Shown here piece by piece: positions 4,368-47,762 of a stretch of DNA of 57,080 nucleotides. Position numbers and translations under genes: made by a program. Location of the stretch: the NCBI GenBank assembly GCA_964562925.1, contig CAZLVF010000002.1, forward strand, positions 29,181 through 86,260. Direction: 5' to 3'. This stretch comes from an uncultured Candidatus Bathyarchaeia archaeon (lineage in GTDB: Archaea; Thermoproteota; Bathyarchaeia; 40CM-2-53-6; CAVXDP01). Each line of letters starts with the position of its first letter. Position 1 is the first letter of the stretch. The notes under the pieces are model-generated. The model made no database searches. It was not told where the DNA came from and saw nothing but the letters and a program-made list of their open reading frames with translations.

Positions 4368-4621
4368 CTTTTGTTATGAAAGCAACCCATCGAAGATAAA
4401 ACGTGACCGCTTGCTCCTTGGCTGTGCTCAGCATGTAAACGCGGTACGATTTGAGACCTAGATGGGCAAGGATTATTATCTTCTTAGGCGCAGCGGCTCA
4501 GCAAAACCTGTGCCTCGATATCGAGATAAGTCCACGCGGAAATTTTGAAGACCAAAGCGAATCGAAAAAAGAGCAAAAACAAATGCAACTGAAGGCAGAC
4601 TAAGTCATCCGTCCCGAATGG

Positions 4622-4741
4622 CGCCGGGGGTGGGATTTGAACCCACGAGACCCAGAGGGTCATCGGCTGTTAGCCGAATGGTTAGCAAGCCGACGCCTTA
4701 CCGAGTTGCCCGATCCGGCGAGATCTCTAGGCAACCCCGGC
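4622..4741 (-). tRNA. tRNA-Ser(GCU) carrying two introns, one in the D-arm region and one at the canonical 37/38 position
   Basis: The reverse complement reads GCCGGGG-TT-GCCT[AGAGATCTCGCCGGATCGGGCA]ACTCGGTAAGGC-G-TCGGC-TTGCTA[ACCATTCGGCTAAC]A-GCCGA-TGACCCTCTGGGTCTC-GTGGGTTCAAATCCCAC-CCCCGGC-G-CCA. The acceptor stem is a perfect 7 bp and the T-arm is GTGGG/CCCAC. A long variable arm fits class II Ser, and the anticodon loop is TTGCTAA (GCU). Removing about 22 + 14 nt leaves an 85-86 nt mature tRNA. A CCA is encoded at 4619-4621. Confidence 0.7.
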
Positions 4742-6607: not shown

Positions 6608-6890
6608 GGACAGACATCGTTAGCGAAGGGTTTCTCACTACTCTGCCCAGAAACCTGCTCATAACTATGCCGCACCATGTCAGAAGAGATTCTCGAACAT
6701 CGTCATATGGCTCACGTGGACGAATCGAGTTGTGAATGTGCGGATCCCTAACAAGGTTGTTGTGTTAGTTAATTTGATACTTGCAATCTTGAATCCGGAT
6801 AGCTAGAAGCGGTCAGAACATTACGGTAGCCGCTCATAGGATTGCGATGAGAACCTTGGGAGGCTGTGAGCTCTTATCAAGATGATATGG

Positions 6891-7003
6891 AGCCCCGGGC
6901 GGGGTTTGAACCCGCGACCTTCGGCTATTCGTTCAACTGACCTGTACCAAGCCGACGCCCATGACCAGGCTAGGCTGTCCCGCTTCTTAGAGAGTACCGG
7001 GGC
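6891..7003 (-). tRNA. tRNA-Thr(GGU) carrying two introns, one after position ~9 in the D-arm region and one at the canonical 37/38 position
   Basis: The reverse complement reads GCCCCGG-TA[CTCTCTAAGAAGCGGGACA]GCCTAGCCTGGTCATGGGC-G-TCGGC-TTGGTA[CAGGTCAGTTGAACGAAT]A-GCCGA-AGGTC-GCGGGTTCAAACCCCGC-CCGGGGC-T-CCA. The acceptor stem is a perfect 7 bp, the discriminator is U73 and the anticodon is GGU. The mature length is 76 nt after removing 19 + 18 nt. A CCA is encoded at 6888-6890. Confidence 0.7.
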
Positions 7004-7206: not shown

Positions 7207-8022
7207 ATGAGACATAACTATAATCGTTTAAAAGAAATCAGGGAGGAAAAAAGAAAATTGGTAAGAAAGTGTTCTACCTGCGGTGCAAACAACAGGGATG
7301 ATGCCAGCTTCTGCTCAGCGTGCGGTACATCACTCGTCGCTCCGCCTTCCGTCAAGCCGGTGCCCACCGTGAGAGTGGTTTCTCCGGTCACTCCCGTCGG
7401 CGCGCCTGTCAGGGTTCCGCCGCCAGGCATGTGCTTCTACCATCCGAACCTTCCAGCCATCTACGTTTGCAATAGATGCGGACGACCGATCTGCAGAGAC
7501 GATTCGAAAGCCTACCAGGATCTGGTTATGTGTCCGCAATGCTACCAGAGCGTGGTACCGATCGTAGCAGCCCCTGCATATTACCCAACAGCACCTGTCT
7601 ACCCGGCTCCACCCCCGATGCCCGAAGTCGGATTCGCTCCCCCTCCTGTAGGAGTTCCACCTGTAGCGGTATTCCCACCTGCAAGATCAACTTGGGGTTT
7701 CACCATATCTCTAATCGGAGGAATCCTAATCATAATCAACGCAGCCGCTCTGCTCTCCGCTAGCTTCTACGCCTTGTGGGCAGCCATCTTTCCATGGATA
7801 ACCTATTTTGGCCCGTTCCCGCCTTGGGTGCTCGTGGCGATCGGACTGATCCTCGGCATCATAGCCACGATAGGGAGCATTCTGATGATCCTGGGCTACG
7901 GAACGATTGGAGCCGTAGTAGTGTTCCCAGCGGCTGTGATCAGCCTAATCCTCGGTGGAGGCTTCATAGCCGGGTTCGTCCTAGGAGTCGTTGGCGGAAT
8001 CCTAGGAATGCTTGGAAGGTAA
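7207..8022 (+). CDS. Membrane-anchored zinc-finger protein and candidate RING/B-box-like E3 of the operon: N-terminal zinc ribbon plus a C-x2-H-x8-C-x2-C-x4-C-x12-C-x2-C module, a Pro-rich linker and about 4 C-terminal TM helices
   Basis: 271 aa. The zinc ribbon is CSTCGANNRDDASFCSACG and the second module is CFYHPNLPAIYVCNRCGRPICRDDSKAYQDLVMCPQC. The C-terminal 110 aa are Gly/Ile/Leu-rich hydrophobic helices. It is the first gene of the Ub/E2/E1 operon. Confidence 0.55.
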   Translation: MRHNYNRLKEIREEKRKLVRKCSTCGANNRDDASFCSACGTSLVAPPSVKPVPTVRVVSPVTPVGAPVRVPPPGMCFYHPNLPAIYVCNRCGRPICRDDSKAYQDLVMCPQCYQSVVPIVAAPAYYPTAPVYPAPPPMPEVGFAPPPVGVPPVAVFPPARSTWGFTISLIGGILIIINAAALLSASFYALWAAIFPWITYFGPFPPWVLVAIGLILGIIATIGSILMILGYGTIGAVVVFPAAVISLILGGGFIAGFVLGVVGGILGMLGR

Positions 8023-8079
8023 CGCATCCAACCTTCTCCCCCTTTTTCCCCACTTTCAGGGACGCAAGGGCGGCATAAA

Positions 8080-9633
8080 GTGTTCTACGTCAGTATGTCT
8101 AAAGACGCTATGTCTAAAGTTATCGATCACGCAAAAAGCACGCCCGAGAAAGAGGTAATAGGAGTTTTGACGGGGAGGATGGATAATCAGACCTTGATCG
8201 TTGAAGACGCTGTGAGTGGCGAGACGGTAAGGAGCGAGAAAAATGTGGTAATGCCAGGAGAAACTCTGGCAAAGATCGCGGACGATATCATAAATAGGAG
8301 GACTAAGGGAAACATAATCGGCTGGTATCATTCACATCCGGGTTATGGAGTATTCATGTCCGAAGTGGACAAGGAGACACAGTCCAAGTTGCAGCAGTTC
8401 TCTCCATATATTGTTGCACTTGTATCCGATCCGTCAACTGGAGAGTTCAAGTTTTTTACTCACGATGAAAAGTCCAAGTCTACCGAGACCCTAACCCACG
8501 ACCGAGTTCACTTCTACGGCCCTGGAGAAAAATCTGTGCCAGAAAGTTTCAGGAAGACAAAGACTGCGCCAAGGTTACCAGCGACACCTCCACCTTCAAT
8601 AGCTCCGCCTCAAAGGCCACCACTAACGAGAAGACAGGTCTACGCCTTGGTCACAGCGATGGTTCTTATTGCAGCAATAGTGACAGGTGCCCTACTCATG
8701 GTGACTATTTCTGGCCCTATCTCGCCGCTAAGAATGGATCACGGGCCTGTCACAAGCGGGACCATCGGCAATGATATCAAACTGATAGCTAATGTGAGCG
8801 GACCGGTTATGGAGGTTCTAGTCTACTACAAGCTTTCGAAAGACGCTACGTGGAAAAGTGATAATATGCTCCTGATCTCCGGCATGCGTGACACATATTC
8901 CTATACGATTCGTGGAAATGATGTAACCGGGAATCTAGACTACTATATAACAGCATCCGACAGCGCGGGCAATGAGATTTCAATTCCCACCAGTACGATC
9001 GTAATCCGGGACTTTGACGTTGACATATCTGAAAGCCAACTAACGATATATGTTGGACAGACGAAGACTACCACCGTGACAGTGAAATCAATAAACGACT
9101 TCGGTTTGCCTGTCTCTCTTAGCGCTCCTAACAGACCGCCCGGAGTCGCAAGCGTATCATTCACCCCCCCGCAGGTTGCGCCTCCGAAAAGCGGCGAAGC
9201 CACATCCACGATGAAGGTGACGCTAGTCCCGTCAGCCGAGACAGGCGAATATGAGATGGAGGTTCAAGCGAAGTATGGTCAGGTAACAAGAACTATATCC
9301 GTAACCATTCTTGTATCAGGCTTCGAGATATCAGTGTCGCCATTGTCTGTAACGATCCAGAAAGGAAAGACGGCCACATACACGGTTACGTTGGACATAA
9401 AGAAGGGTTTCACAGATACAGTCTCACTCGATGTTACAGGGCTTCCATCAAAAGGAATTGAACAAACAAGGATTCTCGTTATTAACAAGAAGATAGCTGC
9501 GCAGGGAACTACGACGCTTACAATGGAGATAGTAACAAGATCCGACGTACCCGCGGGGACTTATAACCTCAAGATAGTTGCATCCGGCGGAGAGTTGACA
9601 CAGGAGGAAAGAGTTACTTTAATTATTCAATAG
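8080..9633 (+). CDS. JAMM/MPN+ metalloisopeptidase (Rpn11-like deubiquitinase/Ub-precursor protease) fused to a TM helix and a ~300-aa extracellular beta-sandwich (Ig/CARDB-like) region
   Basis: 517 aa. The N-terminus carries EVIGVLTGR...GWYHSHPGYGVFMSEVD, which contains the JAMM motif E-x(n)-HxH-x7-S-xxD. A Pro-rich linker and a positive-inside TM helix (VYALVTAMVLIAAIVTGALLMVTI) follow. Repeated Thr/Val-rich beta-strand modules make up the rest (TYTVTLDI, TTTLTMEIV, YNLKIVASG). Confidence 0.8.
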   Translation: MFYVSMSKDAMSKVIDHAKSTPEKEVIGVLTGRMDNQTLIVEDAVSGETVRSEKNVVMPGETLAKIADDIINRRTKGNIIGWYHSHPGYGVFMSEVDKETQSKLQQFSPYIVALVSDPSTGEFKFFTHDEKSKSTETLTHDRVHFYGPGEKSVPESFRKTKTAPRLPATPPPSIAPPQRPPLTRRQVYALVTAMVLIAAIVTGALLMVTISGPISPLRMDHGPVTSGTIGNDIKLIANVSGPVMEVLVYYKLSKDATWKSDNMLLISGMRDTYSYTIRGNDVTGNLDYYITASDSAGNEISIPTSTIVIRDFDVDISESQLTIYVGQTKTTTVTVKSINDFGLPVSLSAPNRPPGVASVSFTPPQVAPPKSGEATSTMKVTLVPSAETGEYEMEVQAKYGQVTRTISVTILVSGFEISVSPLSVTIQKGKTATYTVTLDIKKGFTDTVSLDVTGLPSKGIEQTRILVINKKIAAQGTTTLTMEIVTRSDVPAGTYNLKIVASGGELTQEERVTLIIQ

Positions 9634-9668
9634 ATAGTTAACTAGGCCAATGGAGGTTGTCGAAAGAG

Positions 9669-9920
9669 ATGAAACTCTTTGTACAGGCGCCCGTAGGTCC
9701 ACAGACAGGGTTGGCTGAGATAGAGGTCATACCAGATCATACGATCGGCGAAGTGAAACAGCAGGTCTGCACTTCATTCGGCGTTGATCCAACGACGGTA
9801 TCCCTGATGTATGGTGGAGTCGTCCTCGACGAGAGTATGACAATTTCAAGAGCAGGCATACCGGAGAACGCGCAGCTTGCACTCATGCCATACAATATCA
9901 TCGGCGGTCAGATGGTGTGA
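9669..9920 (+). CDS. Ubiquitin-like beta-grasp modifier precursor (GG followed by a 3-residue C-terminal extension)
   Basis: 83 aa from the ATG at 9669; the ORF track starts at a TTG at 9657. The sequence MKLFVQAPVGPQTGLAEIEVIPDHTIGEVKQQV...NIIGGQMV aligns with ubiquitin (MQIFVKTLTGKTITLEV...LRLRGG). GGAGG lies 12 nt upstream. Confidence 0.75.
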   Translation: MKLFVQAPVGPQTGLAEIEVIPDHTIGEVKQQVCTSFGVDPTTVSLMYGGVVLDESMTISRAGIPENAQLALMPYNIIGGQMV

Positions 9921-10507
9921 ATCTACCGCTCCTCTATGAAGAAAGAAGATTTGTAAACCACCAGTTCCCGATGGTTACCCCCCTCGCCGACCCTCCAACC
10001 CTATATGAGGGACTCCTCCGCTGCGAGAAAGGCCGAGTGAAAGACCTAGCTGAGAAGAAGATCTGGCCGTTCACTGAATATGTGAACTGGCACCGTTTCA
10101 GGCTTGAACTTTTGAATGAGTATCCGCTGAAACCGCCGGCCGTTACTTGGCTCACCGAGGTCTCTCATCCGAACATCGTTCCAAATATTCCTGGAGCTGT
10201 ATGCGTCTCGGTTCTGGGAGAGGCTTGGCGCCCGGATCTGAAGCTTATCTCGGTCATAAACTCACTCTACTATCTTCTATCGGACCCAAACCCCGACAAC
10301 GTCTTCGACCATCCGAAGTGTATAGAAGCTGCAAAGGTCTGTAGAAGTCACGGCTTCCCAGATAGAGGGATGCGAAAGAAGACTCCGGAGCCCGAGGATA
10401 TAATGAGGTTCAACATTATCCCGATCCCTGGTTCAGCTGCTGCCTCACCAGATACTCTCCTCACTTTTAGGATACCCGGTCGAATGCGCCAAGAGGCAAC
10501 TCGATGA
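9917..10507 (+). CDS. Ubiquitin-conjugating enzyme E2 (UBC fold)
   Basis: 196 aa. The HPN motif and catalytic Cys are present (VSHPNIVPNIPGAVCVSVLGEAWRPDLKLISVINSLYYLLSDPNPDN). The GTG start overlaps the Ub stop by 4 nt. Confidence 0.75.
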   Translation: MNLPLLYEERRFVNHQFPMVTPLADPPTLYEGLLRCEKGRVKDLAEKKIWPFTEYVNWHRFRLELLNEYPLKPPAVTWLTEVSHPNIVPNIPGAVCVSVLGEAWRPDLKLISVINSLYYLLSDPNPDNVFDHPKCIEAAKVCRSHGFPDRGMRKKTPEPEDIMRFNIIPIPGSAAASPDTLLTFRIPGRMRQEATR

Positions 10508-11757
10508 AGGTTACGGCGGAGATCCCGCAGTATAAAGAAGTTGAAGTCAAAGCCTCCAAGAATATGAAGGTGCGGAACCTAAAGAGAGAGATATGTAAAA
10601 AGCTCGGGATCAATGAACAGCTTACGTCTCTGCTTCTACAGGGCAGGCCACTTCGAGAGAACAGCACTATCAAAGAGATCGGTCTTCAATCTAGAAAGCT
10701 AACTGTAGACTATATGTGGGCTAGGCAGCTGCTCCTTTGGGGTAGCAATGGCCAGACAGCGATCGAGAACGCGCAGGTCTTTCTTGCGGGCGCAGGCGCT
10801 ATAGGAAACGAGGTTGCAAAGAACCTTGCCATGCTAGGTGTTCAAAGACTTGTGATCGTTGATTATGATCTTGTTGAAACCTCAAACCTCAGCCGAACCG
10901 TTTTTTATGAGAAGAGCGATGTTGGGAAAGCGAAGGCGGAGGTTCTGTCAAGAAAGCTGAAGAGGAACTATCCGTACGTTCATCCAACTTTCCACCGCTG
11001 TAGAGTCGAGGGCGTCCCAGCTCAAGTGTATTTGAACTCTGATGTTATTGTATCAGGTCTTGACAACGTTCCATCAAGGATGCATCTCGCCTCAATCTCC
11101 CGGAGATATCAGATCCCCATGGTAGACGCTGGAGCAATAGGCTACGAGGCCAGAGTCCAAGCGTATGTTCCACCTGAGGATCCCTGTCCGATATGTCCTC
11201 TCCCTCCGGGAAACTATGGGCAGATGGCAGGTCTCAGAAACCCCTGTACCGCACCCCTAGAAGAGATGAGGATCCCTTCTCTGCCTACATCGATGTCTCT
11301 GGTATCGTCGATACAGACTCAGGAGGTAGTGAAGATAATATTGGGATACAAGACCTTCCTAAAGGAGAAGAGGTGGCCATCAGAAATAGGAGAGCCTCTA
11401 AAGGGGGCGCTTCTAGTTGATCTAAGGTTCAACAGATACTCTAGGGTTGAACTGAATAGGAATCCAAGATGTATGGTATGTGGAAAAGACGGCGTTGCAA
11501 AGAATATTGTAAGCCGATATGAAGTTTCACTTTCAAAGACTGGAAACTCGACGTCTAGACTCCAGAAAAGAGTTAGCGAACTCTTAGATGCCAAACCGAC
11601 AGAGATGCTAATGTTCAAGGAGGACAAAAAGAAACTCGTACCAGTTGAGGTTGGGAAAGAATTAACTGAGTATGATCTAGAGAAAGGAAAATTTGTTCAC
11701 ATAGTGATGAAGACGGCTGACGACAAGTATTCTGAGGCTGTTGTCAAACTCAAGTGA
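10504..11757 (+). CDS. Ubiquitin-activating enzyme E1-like (ThiF/MoeB/UBA fold) with an N-terminal ubiquitin-like domain and a C-terminal ubiquitin-fold domain
   Basis: 417 aa. The Rossmann GxGxxG motif is FLAGAGAIGNEVAKNLAMLGV. Zn-binding pairs are CPICP and CMVCG. The N-terminal 70 aa and C-terminal 90 aa have a beta-grasp-like pattern. The ATGA start overlaps the E2 stop. Confidence 0.8.
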   Translation: MKVTAEIPQYKEVEVKASKNMKVRNLKREICKKLGINEQLTSLLLQGRPLRENSTIKEIGLQSRKLTVDYMWARQLLLWGSNGQTAIENAQVFLAGAGAIGNEVAKNLAMLGVQRLVIVDYDLVETSNLSRTVFYEKSDVGKAKAEVLSRKLKRNYPYVHPTFHRCRVEGVPAQVYLNSDVIVSGLDNVPSRMHLASISRRYQIPMVDAGAIGYEARVQAYVPPEDPCPICPLPPGNYGQMAGLRNPCTAPLEEMRIPSLPTSMSLVSSIQTQEVVKIILGYKTFLKEKRWPSEIGEPLKGALLVDLRFNRYSRVELNRNPRCMVCGKDGVAKNIVSRYEVSLSKTGNSTSRLQKRVSELLDAKPTEMLMFKEDKKKLVPVEVGKELTEYDLEKGKFVHIVMKTADDKYSEAVVKLK

Positions 11758-15080: not shown

Positions 15081-15293
15081 ATGATATTCTACCTGATGTC
15101 TTGTACGGTGACATGTGTGATGTTAGAAGGGAAGACCAGAATCATACTTCCGCCCAGGGGTGGAAAAACAGGTATCTTGTATATTCCTGCTGACATCGTG
15201 AAAGACTCCTCTTTTCCATTTCAAGCTAACGAAAGGGTGCTTGTTCGAATAGTGGGGAAGAAGCTAGTAGTGGAGAGGGAGGGTGAGGGTTGA
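15081..15293 (+). CDS. Small hypothetical protein upstream of the crenactin cluster (possibly an AbrB/swapped-hairpin-like fold)
   Basis: 70 aa from the ORF track only; the call rests on its position. The sequence includes TRIILPPRGGKTGILYIPADIV. Confidence 0.2.
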   Translation: MIFYLMSCTVTCVMLEGKTRIILPPRGGKTGILYIPADIVKDSSFPFQANERVLVRIVGKKLVVEREGEG

Positions 15294-15832
15294 AGAGGAT
15301 AAGAAGAATTTCAGGGCAGGTAGCGTGGCGAGCGAGAAAAGTTGGAAATCTCCGTCAGGACTATTGGAAGAGGCTCCTTGCGGATATCGGCAAGCTGGCA
15401 GTCTTTCGTGGGACGAAAGGAGGTTATTACCGTTTCTCGGGCGGCAGGTTGTATCTGATAGGAAACCCGATCGATAATGATGGCTATACCACGTTTACGG
15501 TGGGGTTTAAGGGGTCAAAACCCTCTTTTGTTGACCTCCTCCTTCAGGCGTCAACTGGAGACTTTGAGATATGTGACATCTCATTCTTCTTGAGAGATCA
15601 GATGATTGACTTCGAGAACCTACTGAAGAATCTAAGATTCCGTTGTAACGATCTTAGGGAAGAGGCTAATGGAAATTTCTCCGCAAAAATAGCAGACGAC
15701 CTCAAAGTAGCTCGACTCTCCGGCTATCCAAACATGAATATCATCAAAATATCAAGATCGTTTACGAGGAGAGGCTTGGAACCAAGTCGATTCCTTGATA
15801 GATTTATCGAGATGAACTTGAATGGGAAATGA
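15290..15832 (+). CDS. Hypothetical protein immediately upstream of and overlapping the crenactin start (occupies the arcadin-1 position)
   Basis: 180 aa. It has an ATGA overlap with the upstream ORF and an 11-nt overlap with crenactin, which suggests translational coupling. No recognisable motif was found. Confidence 0.4.
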   Translation: MKRIRRISGQVAWRARKVGNLRQDYWKRLLADIGKLAVFRGTKGGYYRFSGGRLYLIGNPIDNDGYTTFTVGFKGSKPSFVDLLLQASTGDFEICDISFFLRDQMIDFENLLKNLRFRCNDLREEANGNFSAKIADDLKVARLSGYPNMNIIKISRSFTRRGLEPSRFLDRFIEMNLNGK

Positions 15833-17108
15833 AGCAAGAAGATCATCGTACAAGCAGGAATACACTTTTGGAATGGACTATGGAACGGGGGACTTCAAGT
15901 ATGGACCGATATCATGCGGCGAGAAACCGGAGATCATAGAGAATCGAGGATACTTTCCCGACAGAGAATCGATCATGTACACCACATTCGAGAATCCTAG
16001 GGAGATAATAGTTGGTAGAGATGTTCCGCTCTATCTTCAAGCCAGCGATGACCTTTCAACTAGACTAGTGTACCCGATGAAGAATGGAGTCATCGGTAAG
16101 AATGATCTCCAGGCTTGGAGCGTCGTCCGAGAGATATCGAAGTATGGGATAGAGACATTCAAACCTGCAGACTCGGATTTCCAAGGTTTCTACCTAGTTT
16201 CCTCGCTTTCATCGGTCTCCCCAAGGTACATGTATGAAAAACTCTTCGAGGCTTATGGAGAGATCAACAGAGAACAGAAGCTGATCAAAGCTGCAACCGT
16301 GATACAGCAACCTCTCGCGGTTGCGATCGCGCATAAAACGACAACCTGCGTCGTTATCGAGTCAGGCCACGGAAACACCCAGATCTGCCCAATCTCAAGG
16401 TACCCTGTCCGAAACGCCATCGTAGCAATAAATCGAGGAGGCGGAGACTCAAACGCATTGACCGCCGAGATTCTTAAGGACCAGGGCTACGGGGACCTCG
16501 CCAGAGAAGAAGCGATCGTCAGGAAGGTGAAGGAGAGCATCGGCCTAGTTCCCATAGACTTGGAGAAGGCTGTGGCTTCTGCCAAGAGGAACCCGAAAAA
16601 GTTCAGGGCTAGGTTCAAAGTGCCTGGAACACGCGTTTCGATAGAGTTTGAGGATAACTCTTGGACGCGTTTCCTAATTGGAGAATACGTCTTCAACCCG
16701 AACCATGAGCTGTTCCAAAGCTACTTCTCCAGAGGTATGGGAAGACCTAAAGACGTTAAGGTCGGTGATACAACCTTCAAGGGCACCTTGGATTTTGGCG
16801 ACGCAGTTGTCGAAGCTGTTGAACGCTGTCCCATAGAGCTCCAGCCACACCTCTACAGGCAGATCCTACTTTCAGGAGGCAACTTCAGCTGGAAACCGCC
16901 AGAACAGCTGAAGGACGTGGCAACCGACTCCGCAAACAAGATGCGGATACTTCTGAGGAAGAAGGGTGTAACAAACGTCAAGAGCCTCATGACAGAATCG
17001 CCTCAGTTCTCAGTCTGGCGTGGATGTATAATCTATGGCTACGCGGTGCCAGAGGACTATGAATGGAGCTGGGACCGTATGGAAGGTTGGAACATGCTTG
17101 GCGACTGA
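15822..17108 (+). CDS. Crenactin (archaeal actin homologue; actin/Hsp70 ATPase fold)
   Basis: 428 aa. The phosphate-1 motif is YTFGMDYGTGDFKYGP. Blocks matching Pyrobaculum crenactin as I recall it: VIQQPLAVAIA, VVIESGHGNTQICPIS, AINRGGG, LTAEILKDQGYGDLAREE, IGLVP, WTRFLIGEYVFNPNHE, LLSGGNFSWKPP and FSVWRGCIIYGYAVP. Confidence 0.85.
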   Translation: MGNEARRSSYKQEYTFGMDYGTGDFKYGPISCGEKPEIIENRGYFPDRESIMYTTFENPREIIVGRDVPLYLQASDDLSTRLVYPMKNGVIGKNDLQAWSVVREISKYGIETFKPADSDFQGFYLVSSLSSVSPRYMYEKLFEAYGEINREQKLIKAATVIQQPLAVAIAHKTTTCVVIESGHGNTQICPISRYPVRNAIVAINRGGGDSNALTAEILKDQGYGDLAREEAIVRKVKESIGLVPIDLEKAVASAKRNPKKFRARFKVPGTRVSIEFEDNSWTRFLIGEYVFNPNHELFQSYFSRGMGRPKDVKVGDTTFKGTLDFGDAVVEAVERCPIELQPHLYRQILLSGGNFSWKPPEQLKDVATDSANKMRILLRKKGVTNVKSLMTESPQFSVWRGCIIYGYAVPEDYEWSWDRMEGWNMLGD

Positions 17109-17154
17109 AAGTTCTCTTATAGAACGAGTGAAAGGATACTTCATCACAAAAGGG

Positions 17155-17751
17155 ATGCAGGACGCTGGAACCCTCAGCAAAAACCACTCTGAGAGCAACT
17201 GCCTCATATTCTCGGGGACAGGAGTTCTGTCCGCAGTAAGAGTTCTCAGAGAAGAAGAGTTATCCACCAGAAACTCGGTTTTGGAAGCAGTCCTATCATC
17301 AGCCACCCTGATTAACCGTGTTAACCAAGTCTACCTAGCCTTACCAAGGCTGGTTTCGTCAACCATCGAAAGCAAAATCATGGAAGAGTATGGAATCGGG
17401 CTCATCGTCTACGATCAGAAGAACGTGGAGGAAGTTGTGGCGCCAAGGTACTTCCAAACTGCAAGCCAACATACAATTGTTGCCTCGGAGAACGAAGACT
17501 CTCATAGAGTCTTGGTCGAAGAGATAGACACGTTGAGAGGCAGGTTAAGATCTCTAGAAGAGGCTGTAGAATCGTTGAGGTCAGAAGTCGAATATCTTAG
17601 ATCTTGGAAGCCTCAAGCCCCGCGCGAAGAGACAGTGACATCCTCATCGGTTTCGCCGAGGTTTGAGGGAGCGCCCTCATTTCTCAGAGACAACCCTTGG
17701 ATAGAGGTGCTCTCAAGAAGAGGCCGCGAGGGTGAGAGGCTTGTCAGCTGA
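17155..17751 (+). CDS. Hypothetical coiled-coil protein directly downstream of crenactin (arcadin-2 position). The start is uncertain: the ORF track extends to a TTG at 17035 and an ATG lies at 17155
   Basis: A heptad coiled coil (IDTLRGRLRSLEEAVESLRSEVEYLRS) is followed by an acidic/Ser-rich tail. Its position and size fit an actin-binding arcadin-like partner. Confidence 0.35.
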   Translation: MQDAGTLSKNHSESNCLIFSGTGVLSAVRVLREEELSTRNSVLEAVLSSATLINRVNQVYLALPRLVSSTIESKIMEEYGIGLIVYDQKNVEEVVAPRYFQTASQHTIVASENEDSHRVLVEEIDTLRGRLRSLEEAVESLRSEVEYLRSWKPQAPREETVTSSSVSPRFEGAPSFLRDNPWIEVLSRRGREGERLVS

Positions 17752-44931: not shown

Positions 44932-45339
44932 TCAGGGCTTAACGGTCTTTCGTAGCCTCTCGACATAGTCGGCTAGTTCCTCAACGCTCCTTATCTCTGA
45001 TCGTCCTAGGCTTCTCAGTTCTCTCCAGAATGAGTCATCCGTCTTGACCCGGACTCTTGAGAGTTCTCTCACGAGCTGCGAGGAGAGCTCTCTCCCCTCC
45101 CTATCAAAATCTGTGAGTATGATGACTTCTCTCCATAGCTTGATCTCTTCAAGAAAATCAAAGAACCCCATCGCGGATGACTTTAGGCATAGGATCTCTC
45201 CCTCGACGCCCAAGCGTCTTAACGAAAGTCTATCTTTTCTTCCTTCAACTATTATCGGGGTTCCAAGCTTGGATCTTGCTACTAGCTTTCGAGTAAGCCT
45301 ATCTATCCTTTCATATTTCCTTTCGTCTGCAGTTGGCAA
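44932..45339 (-). CDS. Small stand-alone Toprim-domain protein
   Basis: 135 aa. Motifs IIVEGRKDRLSLRRLG and ILTDFDREG are present. Confidence 0.55.
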   Translation of the reverse strand: MPTADERKYERIDRLTRKLVARSKLGTPIIVEGRKDRLSLRRLGVEGEILCLKSSAMGFFDFLEEIKLWREVIILTDFDREGRELSSQLVRELSRVRVKTDDSFWRELRSLGRSEIRSVEELADYVERLRKTVKP

Positions 45340-45344
45340 GGCGT

Positions 45345-46304
45345 CTATCTCGTAACTTCGATTTCCATCATCCTTGATAGAGTGTCCGGATATTTGGTGA
45401 AGTGGTTCCTGACTCCCTTCAGAACCGTTGAGAGGGCGTCGGCGACACTGTTCTTTAGGTCGAGCGGATGGATCTCTCCTCTAGAGTAGGCTTCTTCAAG
45501 TGTTTCATATTTTTCAAACGTTATGGGGCCACCGTACTTTGCAGGCCTGTCGAGCCCAAGTCTCCCGGCGATTGGAAAGACCGCATACCTCGCTATCTCT
45601 AGTACAGGGTTGGATGCGACATCTTTCGGTGGACAGAATGCCTCGCCCATTTTTCTTCTGATCTCCCCAGAACTATCGTGGACGAATACGCATTTTCCAG
45701 GAAGGCTCTTAGACATCTTCGATCTGATCTCCTTGTCCAGGTCCCTGTCCTCGTCAAATCGTCCTTCGCCCGCTCGTTCCGGTTCAGATAGCCCCATTAG
45801 AAGGTGGGTGTGGACACAGGTCGGCTTCTTCATGTTCAGCTTCTCGGCTGAATCTCTAGCCAACATGTGAGCTTTCCTCTGATCCATTCCACCGCACGCC
45901 ACATCCAGTTTCAACTGGAATATGTCCGCCGATTGCATGCATGGGTAGAGGATGGTTGCGGACTCCATGTCCGATGTATCCATGCTCCTGCCCATTATGG
46001 GGAGCGCACGCCAGATTCTCTGAATTGAGGTGTTCTTTCCTATCTTGACGACCTTCTCCCAGTATGATATGTCACCTGCAAGCTCCGACGCCCAGACATA
46101 GTTGACCCGTTGGCTTTCTACCCCAAGTCCTTCAAAACAGTGTTTGAAGTATTCTCCACACAATCTAATATTGTCCATTTTGCCGCCGAGTTTGTTATTG
46201 ATCCATGAGTGCCAGTCTGCAAGAAAGATTGTGAAATCAAAACCAGCCTCTAGCATATCCTTAATCTTGCTTCCACAGATCAACCCCATCCCGATATGCA
46301 TCAT
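45345..46304 (-). CDS. tyrS: Tyrosyl-tRNA synthetase, C-terminal 319 codons (from the HIGH-region variant MHIGMG onward), separated from its N-terminal 44 codons by an in-frame UGA and a +1 frame change
   Basis: The protein aligns with archaeal TyrRS from the HIGH region to the C-terminus (FDFTIFLADWHSW, GGMDQRKAHMLAR, KMSKS). The N-terminal about 45 residues that every TyrRS needs are absent from this frame but lie directly upstream in another frame. Confidence 0.85.
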   Translation of the reverse strand: MMHIGMGLICGSKIKDMLEAGFDFTIFLADWHSWINNKLGGKMDNIRLCGEYFKHCFEGLGVESQRVNYVWASELAGDISYWEKVVKIGKNTSIQRIWRALPIMGRSMDTSDMESATILYPCMQSADIFQLKLDVACGGMDQRKAHMLARDSAEKLNMKKPTCVHTHLLMGLSEPERAGEGRFDEDRDLDKEIRSKMSKSLPGKCVFVHDSSGEIRRKMGEAFCPPKDVASNPVLEIARYAVFPIAGRLGLDRPAKYGGPITFEKYETLEEAYSRGEIHPLDLKNSVADALSTVLKGVRNHFTKYPDTLSRMMEIEVTR

Positions 46305-46326
46305 TCTGGATGAGTCTGTTGGAGCT

Positions 46327-46461
46327 CATTGTCCAGAGCATTCGAAGCCCCAGTAGGCTCTCGGTCTGGAGGTTGTCTCAAGTGTCGAACGGAGTTCCTC
46401 TCGGGTGATCACCTCGTCGGCGTTGTGAACGACGAGGGACATCCTCTCCTCCAAGTCCATG
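46327..46461 (-). CDS. tyrS: Tyrosyl-tRNA synthetase N-terminal segment (44 codons ending in UGA), in a different frame from the body of tyrS
   Basis: Manual translation gives MDLEERMSLVVHNADEVITREELRSTLETTSRPRAYWGFECSGQ*. This aligns with the TyrRS N-terminus (...SAYIGFEPSGK), the tyrosine-binding GFEPSG region. Coordinates here may be off by 1 nt. Confidence 0.6.
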
Positions 46462-47081
46462 ATGTTCACATTGAATTGGAGATCGAAATCGGATGATCAA
46501 GAACTTAAGAGTTTGCTATCTTCGTCGAAAACCGAAGCGCAAAACTTCACTCAGGGATTCGGCTCTGTAGCCTACGACACTAACACCCAACCTCATTGAA
46601 AGTGGCGTCGCCACACTAGGATGGGCTCTCTCGGAGGTAGGCTTCTCTTGTACCGCCCATCTTCAAGATAACGGTGTGAGTCTGTCGAATTAACCGTTTT
46701 GGTTTCGTCATGTGTTAACGTCTGATTTGCCAGGGTTTGGCCGTGTAGGTTGCTAAGAGCTTCTCTAAGAGCTCTAAATCCGACCGGATAACCGGAAGGT
46801 GCCTCTTTTTATCGTGTTCCAGAGCGTCGGCGACGAAGTGGACCACGTTGCCAGGATTGACGAGTGCGAAGACAACCAGGCATACGACAAGATGACGAAG
46901 GCATTAGAAGATCCTGAAATTGTGAAGTTGAAGAGCAAATATCATTCCAAGTGGAACCCCCTAGTGGTTCCAGACTCCTTCAAACCAGAACTCTGGATCG
47001 TAAAGGTGAAAGTCGACTTGAAGAGACAAACTTAGAGGAAAAAGAGCCGTAGAAACAATGGTTGTAGTAACGTTCTTTCTA

Positions 47082-47315
47082 CTATGGGAGAAGGTATCCT
47101 GCTGGCCGGTTTGCTGGTAAGTAGTAGGGCACTTGGCAGTAATGGCCGGGCAAATAGTATAGTTGCGGAAAATATTGAACTGGTGCATAGTAGCGTGGAT
47201 AACGGGGCAAATAGTAAGGTGTATAGCCTCTTCCTGCGGCGTATCCAGCTGCGCCCCCGACTGCGCCTCCAGCTAAGGCTCCGACAGCTAACCCCAATAG
47301 TAGTTCAAGAACCAT
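47082..47315 (-). CDS. Small protein with an N-terminal Gly-zipper TM segment and Tyr/Pro-rich 'YYLP' repeats
   Basis: 77 aa (MVLELLLGLAVGALAGGAVGGAAGYAAG...PYYLPRYPRYYAPVQYFPQLYYLPGHYCQVPYYLPANRPAGYLLP). GAGG-type SD-like motifs lie upstream. The DNA is internally repetitive, and an ORF of similar length overlaps on the opposite strand. Confidence 0.3.
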   Translation of the reverse strand: MVLELLLGLAVGALAGGAVGGAAGYAAGRGYTPYYLPRYPRYYAPVQYFPQLYYLPGHYCQVPYYLPANRPAGYLLP

Positions 47316-47762
47316 GCCTCAAACCCTCAATTAGAAATCTGCGAAGTCAGCATATACACGTTCTGTAACCTCGCTGGCTTGCTCTGCGTGACTGCATCCA
47401 CAACCAAAGAGCAACAGAAGCCTTGTCCCACTTTAGATATCTTATCACCAATAGGCAAAGCAGTATCAGAGAAATCACGAAAATGATTGCCAAAGCATTG
47501 TACGAGTAGCTCGGAAAACTTCTGATCTCATTCCTTGTCTGTCGTATTTGTGACATACACATTCGATTCATTCGTTCTAGAAAAACCCTCTACAGGCGAG
47601 TTTCGTGTTGTTTAATGTGTGGGGATTCCGGCGTTGGAGGATGCATACCCGTTTAGAAACCGTTTGATAGCGTTTCTGATGGCAAAACTTAGACCGTAAG
47701 ACTTCGTTTCCTGGAACTCTAGAAGCCTCTTGTAATCCTCCTAGTGGAGCCACACCGTAACC

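Follow-up and report, generated by a model that had tools for sequence, protein, structure and literature searches.

A predicted bulge-helix-bulge intron within the tyrosyl-tRNA synthetase gene of uncultured Bathyarchaeia

Introns of archaeal messages and the interrupted tyrS gene

An intron in the cbf5 pre-mRNA of Crenarchaeota has reportedly been described by Watanabe in 2002, by Yoshinari in 2006 and by Yokobori in 2009. It is of the bulge-helix-bulge (BHB) type, a motif of two 3-nt bulges with a 4-bp helix between them that also occurs in relaxed hBH and HBh' variants (PMC6379350), and each bulge is cleaved between its second and third residues (PMC2738675). The cbf5 intron has been described as the only intron within an archaeal coding sequence, with one more BHB intron in a 5' untranslated region (UTR) of Haloferax (PMC7714728; PMC2738675). 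Here we describe an insert in tyrS, the gene of tyrosyl-tRNA synthetase (TyrRS), in 57,080 nucleotides of DNA from an uncultured Candidatus Bathyarchaeia archaeon (assembly GCA_964562925.1, contig CAZLVF010000002.1, positions 29,181 to 86,260), a stretch that we call the window and whose own positions are used throughout. The 27 nt at 46304..46330 on the minus strand (AAUGAGCUCCAACAGACUCAUCCAGAA), delimited by the BHB cutting rule and by comparison with intronless homologues, are very probably a BHB intron of the tyrS pre-mRNA that is removed by the tRNA-splicing endonuclease and the RtcB ligase. That EndA and RtcB would be the enzymes, and that splicing would take place in vivo, we infer from sequence comparison. 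The literature we searched contained nothing on tyrS introns or on mRNA introns of Bathyarchaeia, and the tyrS insert would add only a second kind to the introns known to break up archaeal protein-coding sequences.

One of the closest counterparts is the cbf5 intron (PMC2738675). Both are of the BHB type and lie within the protein-coding sequence of a TACK-lineage archaeon, in both the motif is often relaxed and cutting is predicted between bulge residues two and three, and both have a patchy distribution, suggesting intron gain and loss, in a host gene that belongs to the translation or RNA-maturation apparatus. They differ in host gene and lineage, tyrS of Bathyarchaeia as against the cbf5 pseudouridine synthase of Desulfurococcales and Sulfolobales, and cbf5 splicing has been shown by cDNA and by in-vitro cleavage, whereas splicing of tyrS is predicted from sequence. 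The tyrS intron would work like the cbf5 intron but lies outside the cbf5 family. The BHB introns of archaeal pre-tRNAs, among them multiple introns at non-canonical positions, share with it the 4-bp helix, the 3-nt bulges, the cuts after the second bulge base, a similar size (19 and 18 nt are predicted for a tRNA-Thr of the window) and presumably the machinery, but the tyrS substrate is an mRNA without a tRNA body. The BHB intron of Haloferax volcanii HVO_1309 is likewise carried by an mRNA substrate of the splicing endonuclease; it lies, however, in the 5' UTR of a euryarchaeal gene and leaves the reading frame uninterrupted (PMC7714728). In eukaryotes, HAC1/XBP1 splicing by IRE1 together with RtcB or Trl1 also removes a small mRNA intron by means of a protein endonuclease that cuts RNA loops and a tRNA ligase, and its removal alters the reading frame and switches on protein production, but there the substrate is a pair of stem-loops recognized by IRE1 rather than a BHB, and the regulation is established. 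Finally, the noncoding gaps of about 27-55 nt that follow a GGA codon, with a stop and a hairpin, in T4 gene 60 and the yeast-mitochondrial 'byp' elements resemble the tyrS insert in outline; those gaps need matched take-off and landing codons and stay in the RNA, whereas the corresponding codons in tyrS are mostly mismatched and the insert shows BHB covariation.

Minus-strand translation of 46469..45345 runs in a single frame through VNIMDLEE...AYWGFECSGQ, a stop, APTDSSRMMHIGMG...KMSKS...EVTR and the terminal stop, and tyrS itself (45345..46460, minus strand) contains a single in-frame TGA at 46326-46328. This translation bears out the original prediction that the codons for MDLEE...AYWGFECSGQ end at a TGA and that MMHIGMG...KMSKS follows downstream, as well as its remark that TGA serves as a normal stop elsewhere: TGA terminates 9 of the 30 Pfam-supported open reading frames (ORFs) of the window, and the genetic code is therefore standard here. 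The same prediction had placed ten codons and a +1 frame change between the two parts, and on both counts it needs amendment, since the two ORFs (46326..46469 and 45345..46304) have a common frame and the TGA is separated from the ATG at 46304 by 21 nt, or seven codons. Exon 1 (46331..46460, minus strand) begins with the ATG at 46460, has the N-terminus MDLEER... as in homologues, and consists of 43 codons plus C46331, the first base of the junction Leu codon. Exon 2 (45345..46303, minus strand) contributes the last two bases of that codon and continues through MHIGMG ... KMSKS to the stop. It is 59-80% identical to 80 Bathyarchaeia TyrRS genes, and the relatives of the window tyrS are Bathyarchaeia without exception; an exact-sequence look-up of the exon-2 protein gave no match.

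Structure and conservation of the insert

Among the 80 best relatives of the window tyrS in GTDB, 71 read unbroken through ...AYWGFE[CS]SG-x-MH[IVL]G..., and the remaining nine (L001, L002, L023, L026, L034, L038, L043, L046 and L075) carry, as the window does, an insert exactly between SG and xMH. These ten inserts contain stop codons and vary in length, and exon 1 is in a different frame in six of them. A metagenome scan with a pattern anchored on the flanking codons matched at least 120 stretches. Twelve were discarded: 11 had matched by chance, several in tRNA T-arms, and one was a tyrS that ran off its contig; the remaining stretches together with the window and the GTDB cases make up 118 tyrS instances with 80 distinct core sequences. 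Protein-guided look-ups, which are independent of the DNA pattern, added nine distinct sequences and brought the total to at least 89. The inserts are 21-41 nt long and their length is not a multiple of 3 in 64 of the 80 tallied sequences, so that the frame is restored only by excision. In a rough neighbour-joining tree the intron-bearing tyrS genes fall into at least five separate clades, which implies that the intron is either old with repeated loss or has been gained repeatedly at one site. In 69 of 80 introns an in-frame stop follows the 5' splice site at a distance of at most two codons, either as an immediate UAG or as a UGA within the inner helix. This stop could be a by-product of the motif or could be selected to halt translation of unspliced RNA.

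The predicted fold of the window sequence, all on the minus strand, is built around a central helix in which the exonic CUGG at 46333..46336, formed by the last two bases of the Ser codon UCU and the first two of the Gly codon GGA, pairs with the intronic CCAG at 46306..46309. On the 5' side follows the bulge B1, ACA (46330..46332), with its predicted cut between C46331 and A46330, and then the inner helix, whose 5' strand AUGAG (46325..46329) includes the stop UGA at 46326-46328 and whose 3' strand CUCAU (46310..46314) abuts the central helix with no unpaired base between them. The loop enclosed by this helix (CUCCAACAGA, 46315..46324) is not conserved in length or sequence. On the 3' side lies the bulge B2, AAU (46303..46305), with its predicted cut between A46304 and U46303. 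A candidate outer helix pairs AUGC at 46338..46341 with GCAU at 46296-46299, within the Met-His codons; it is present in the minimum free energy (MFE) fold and enlarges the 3' bulge. The plan common to all sequences is ...UGY-U[C-U/C-G-G][A-Y/A-N] h'(5') ... loop ... h'(3') [C/A-C/U-A/G-G][A-N-U] N-AUG-CAY..., and its handedness is correct for a BHB, both bulges lying 3' of their own central-helix strand. In the proposed mechanism, the exonic CUGG would pair with the CCAG near the 3' end of the insert to give the 4-bp central helix, the 3-nt bulge ACA on the 5' strand would be closed by the AUGAG/CUCAU hairpin, and the bulge AAU on the 3' strand would be closed loosely by exon-exon pairing. 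The archaeal RNA-splicing endonuclease EndA would then cut behind base two of either bulge, at C46331 and at A46304, and joining of the exons by an RtcB-type ligase would give a CUG codon for Leu and a message that encodes a normal TyrRS of 362 residues. Unspliced RNA would be terminated at the UGA two codons past the splice site and would yield no active enzyme.

Pairs were counted in a gap-free alignment of 36 columns and 54 distinct sequences from which the variable loop had been removed. The central and inner helices are 99.1% paired, with changes on both sides at five of eight pairs; neither the observed percentage nor the covariation score was reached by any of 500 shuffles, and sliding the partner columns as a control reduced pairing to only 25-47%. 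The first four pairs of the inner helix are 98.1% paired, and compensatory changes on both sides occur at all four. In the central helix of 89 distinct sequences the combinations are CUGG:CCAG (68), CCGG:CCGG (13), CUGG:CCGG (2, with U.G), CCGG:CUGG (1, with G.U) and CCGG:ACGG (5, with G.A), so 84 of the 89 have four standard pairs; pair 2 covaries as U-A, C-G and U.G, and C x A is absent from all 89. The G.A combination, in which ACGG stands opposite CCGG, is that of a clade apparently from soil metagenomes (L201-L206, L211 and L212; locus position ~470-560). A shifted register (UCCG:CGGA with bulge GAA) would give this clade a canonical fold, but by manual reading the rule-based cuts then break the frame, and the standard register was kept. 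In unconstrained MFE folds of 86 sequences the central helix forms in 72, and in 66 it is intact with B1 fully unpaired. B1 has 3 nt in every sequence and the form A-[C/U/A]-N; its third base is A in all of 79 distinct sequences and U or C in some of the nine added by the protein-guided look-ups. B2 has the form A-N-U, and its middle base varies freely (A 61, U 9, G 7, C 2); its standing as a strict 3-nt bulge hangs on an outer helix that is weak. The Ser-Gly codons are TCTGGA or TCCGGA in 80 of 80 core-set sequences, whereas 58 intronless genes use 18 forms and only two of them have TCCGGA. On this comparison the exon bases in the central helix and B1 are constrained at the RNA level.

When the cutting rule is applied to the window, the cuts fall after C46331 and after A46304 and the junction codon becomes C+UG, or Leu. 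In 79 distinct sequences the rule rebuilds CUA (34), UUA (19), AUG (10), UUG (7), CUG (5) or CUC (4), and the residue is Leu in 69 and Met in 10, with no other residue found. The bases that flank the insert are coupled: where A precedes it the codon is completed with G in 10 of 10 cases, and where U precedes it with A or G in 26 of 26. At the same residue L is found in 49 of 71 intronless homologues, F in 14, M in 5, P in 2 and K in 1. Moving both cuts one base upstream would give Ile 47, Met 14, Leu 11 and Val 7, and Ile and Val are absent from this position in intronless genes. In-silico excision in 80 sequences produced 54 complete ORFs of at least 340 aa with KMSKS and 24 ORFs that are open and cut by the contig end; two failed the automatic criteria. 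The spliced TyrRS of the window has 362 aa and reads ...AYWGFECSG-L-MHIGMG.... It aligns without gaps across the junction to the archaeal structures PDB 2cya and 2cyc, and it matches the Aeropyrum TyrRS with E = 2.5e-100 and the Pyrococcus TyrRS with E = 3.5e-88. The predicted spliced junction in the window joins GGCTTCGAATGCTCTGGAC to TGATGCATATCGGGATGG, as against ...TCTGGACAATGAGC... in unspliced RNA, and the predicted tryptic peptide across it is AYWGFECSGLMHIGMGLICGSK; for the abundant L023-type clade the predicted junction joins GAGTGCTCTGGAC to TAATGCACATCGG.

The original prediction of a BHB mini-intron in tyrS mRNA is therefore strongly supported in its idea by comparison with relatives, but its size, position and register are not. 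The junction RNA that it quoted, UCUGGA-CAA-UGAG-CUCCAACAG-A-CUCA-UCCAGA, is present in the window, and the MFE fold forms its hairpin and reproduces its helices. In place of an intron of 16 nt we find an element of 27 nt at 46304..46330; the segment it proposed to excise, AUGAGCUCCAACAGA, is in fact 15 nt long, and its removal would leave four residues, HSSR, that are found in none of the homologues. Its spliced product, ...ECSGHSSRMMHIGMG..., gives way to ...ECSG-L-MHIGMG..., which the relatives support. The true central helix, CUGG:CCAG, falls within what had been taken as the outer helix, the inner helix is AUGAG:CUCAU, and the bulges had been placed 5' of the helix strands, a mirror image of a real BHB, whereas the actual bulges ACA and AAU lie 3'. 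The earlier register also requires a pair A46332:U46310, which fails in 49 of 54 relatives because the base at the U46310 position covaries instead with the opening base of the inner helix (G-C 49, A-U 5).

Selection on the two exons and the tRNA genes of the window also bear on the intron. For 185 pairs of spliced coding sequences the median dN/dS is 0.127 with a maximum of 0.257, exon 1 alone (40 codons) has a median of 0.198, and exon 1 is free of stop codons in all 116 of 116 intron-bearing instances. With dN/dS of ~0.13-0.2 both exons are, by these estimates, under purifying selection and the genes functional. Multi-intron tRNAs, which had been predicted for the window, were found. ARAGORN and Rfam at gathering thresholds report zero tRNAs in the raw window, and tRNAs emerge only after manual removal of introns. 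A tRNA-Thr(GGU) gene at 6888..7003 on the minus strand, missed by ARAGORN in the raw sequence and below the Rfam threshold, has two predicted introns, a 19-nt BHB intron at tRNA position 8/9 (6977-6995), with central helix CCCG:CGGG and bulges GU|A and AC|A as read by eye, and an 18-nt intron in the anticodon loop (6927-6944); once both are taken out, 79 nt remain as a tRNA whose acceptor stem is perfect and whose CCA is encoded. A second candidate with two inserts lies at 4619..4741 on the minus strand, where an acceptor stem of 7 bp, a T-arm and a long variable arm can be made out. Only when an insert of ~20-26 nt is deleted from the D-arm region does ARAGORN report tRNA-Ser(GCU) with a 14-nt intron in the anticodon loop; some of the deletions give a tRNA-Val call instead, and the assignment is provisional. 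Handling of mini-introns at non-canonical positions is a property of (alpha-beta)2 and epsilon2 enzymes (PMC6379350), and the multi-intron tRNA genes suggest that the host probably has an endonuclease for such introns.

Points of reserve and rival explanations

Several observations weigh against an intron of this kind. The hairpin of the window is unremarkable in energy (z = -1.49, with 16 of 200 shuffles folding equally well), and a generic hBHBh' scan of the whole window gave 110 and 112 matches on the two strands compared with ~100 in shuffles, which makes it uninformative; the tyrS intron itself falls short of the two outer-helix pairs that can be asked for in such a scan. The feature gains significance only by comparison with its relatives, and that comparison has biases of its own. 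The alignment used for pair counting is anchored on the predicted boundaries, and 70 of the 89 sequences were found by a DNA pattern that fixes three of four central-helix pairs and the U of B2, so that at these positions only the 19 protein-derived sequences are unbiased, 14 of them with four standard pairs and five with G.A. These five distinct sequences form one clade with a G.A mismatch at central-helix pair 4. The outer helix in strict register is 74.8% paired in the relatives with zero covariation, and in the window it consists of one U.G followed by C x A. An alternative outer helix, RUGY:GCAY, is 85.6% paired in the relatives, leaves a 3' bulge of 5-6 nt and contains one covarying pair (G-C 26, A-U 14, G-U 9), which is mismatched in 9% of intron-bearing as against 24% of intronless genes. 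The motif is accordingly relaxed on its 3' side and is best described as the relaxed HBh' form; the outer helix is probably poor because the exon side also encodes Cys-Ser-Gly and Leu-Met-His. Pfam scans of 40 window ORFs, taken from the ~50 that reach 120 aa, found neither EndA nor RtcB. A collection of 5.8 billion proteins holds no spliced or full-length protein call near the three intron-bearing queries, and the protein calls thus provide no transcript evidence.

Two other accounts would keep both parts of the gene functional. In one of them tyrS would be a split gene, as in Nanoarchaeum, with an exon-1 peptide of ~45 aa and a separate exon-2 chain started from the conserved AUG that together form a noncovalent TyrRS, the insert being an intercistronic spacer. 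Such an arrangement would agree with the in-frame stop at most two codons after Gly in 69 of 80 sequences, with the AUG (the conserved Met of xMH) that follows every insert and with the purifying selection on both parts, and it would make the variable length and frame of the spacer irrelevant. We nevertheless regard it as very unlikely, because it leaves unexplained the fixed BHB geometry, namely the 4-bp helix that pairs exon 1 with the spacer's end, the 3-nt bulge and the abutting covarying helix, as well as the frozen Ser-Gly codons and the coupling of the bases before and after the insert into a Leu or Met codon. The chain would moreover be interrupted at the active site, past the first beta-strand and ahead of the HIGH motif, the junction residue present in 71 of 71 intronless homologues would be lost, and 2-10 unrelated residues would be appended to the peptide in 11 of 80 cases. 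The other account is translational bypassing of the kind known from T4 gene 60 and mitochondrial 'byp', in which the ribosome would take off at the Gly codon GGA, skip the hairpin and land on GGA or AGA before the AUG. To our knowledge bypassing is unreported in archaea. A GGA followed by a stop (UAG in 26 of 80, UGA one codon later in 43 of 80) and a hairpin is what it would call for, and in the CCGG and ACGG classes, which land on GGA, its product SG-M-MH equals the spliced product. The landing triplet is AGA, however, in 68 of 89 sequences including the window, a mismatch at the first codon position, and the GGA/GGA match exists in 21. Base three of the Ser codon and base one of the landing triplet covary (UCU/AGA and UCC/GGA, with UCC/AGA absent), a relationship that makes sense only as a BHB base pair and is meaningless for hopping. 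Bypassing would also leave the pyrimidine after GGA without a role and would yield Ile 47, Met 14, Leu 11 and Val 7 at a residue where Ile or Val occurs in 0 of 71 intronless homologues. We give this account little credence.

There remain the explanations in which the insert is a defect or is translated: a pseudogene, an assembly or sequencing error, or, for in-frame cases like the window, readthrough or recoding that leaves an insertion of nine residues. The window alone, with one in-frame TGA in an otherwise intact gene, is compatible with these, and the original prediction had listed recoding, a pseudogene and a 1-nt sequencing error as options. The relatives make them scarcely credible. 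Error is excluded by the presence of the insert in 89 distinct sequences from many independent assemblies, and a pseudogene by its clade-wide retention and by dN/dS of ~0.13-0.2 in both exons; in the 80 best GTDB hits none of the intron-bearing genomes, the closed chromosome CP070791.1 among them, shows a second tyrS copy, although a divergent one may exist. Recoding or readthrough would need one frame, which is seen in the window but in only 16 of 80 sequences, 64 inserts shifting the frame, and in the window TGA serves as an ordinary stop. The solved structures of TyrRS offer no space for extra residues between SG and the HIGH motif. Selenocysteine (Sec), Pyl or readthrough, a pseudogene and assembly error were ruled out by the frame statistics and the dN/dS values.

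Implications, gene calls and surrounding features

If the insert is a BHB intron, mRNA splicing by the tRNA machinery would not be a one-off, the substrate range of EndA would be broadened, and an essential aminoacyl-tRNA synthetase would be affected. The intron family would be widespread and old, occurring in five or more separate clades within a major class of uncultivated archaea, and its ~90 natural variants are a ready data set on the tolerance of relaxed BHB motifs. We speculate, and consider it rather doubtful, that the tyrS mini-intron, rather than being a neutral relic, acts as a checkpoint through which TyrRS is made only after processing by EndA and RtcB, and that more unrecognised BHB introns exist in coding genes of Bathyarchaeia behind 'truncated' calls. 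Were the checkpoint real, TyrRS synthesis would be tied to how much tRNA splicing the cell can perform, and through this to the supply of mature tRNAs from intron-containing genes, and the near-universal stop just inside the intron would silence unspliced RNA.

Truncation of the public gene calls for intron-bearing tyrS is systematic. With three in-silico spliced queries, nearly all clusters at least ~76-80% identical are called at ~270-345 aa and cover 76-94% of the query, and the closest full-length calls reach at most 66-77% identity. Well over a hundred close-relative clusters are called as N-terminally truncated in the three protein searches, the truncated calls (P0001-P0008, P0121-P0211 and P0222-P0341) being mostly of 311-332 aa, and in P0193, the one example inspected (355 aa, 'tyrosine--tRNA ligase' at NCBI), the N-terminus is exon 1 translated out of frame. 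These truncated calls and the out-of-frame P0193 mean that the annotation of these TyrRS genes is wrong.

On the minus strand, 5 nt past the end of tyrS, begins the gene of a small Toprim-domain protein of 135 aa (44932..45339). The two genes are also paired in distant intron-bearing contigs (L201-L213), where Toprim follows within 3-110 nt and ribosomal protein S19 is often found upstream; this suggests that tyrS and the Toprim gene form a conserved operon. Between tyrS and pheT, the ~1.3 kb at 46470..47760 contain no Rfam match and no convincing ORF except the one at 47082-47315 on the minus strand, which encodes 77 aa rich in Gly, Tyr and Pro with an N-terminal hydrophobic segment. An archaeal SRP RNA was also found in the window. 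An actin-family protein of 428 aa (15822..17108, plus strand; Pfam Actin E = 2e-16) is flanked by ORFs without a Pfam match (15290-15832 and 17035-17751). A eukaryote-like ubiquitin cluster at 7207..11757 on the plus strand begins with a zinc-ribbon protein and encodes a JAB/MPN deubiquitinase (8080-9633), an E2 UQ_con protein (9917-10507) and a ubiquitin domain fused to a ThiF-type E1 (10504-11757).

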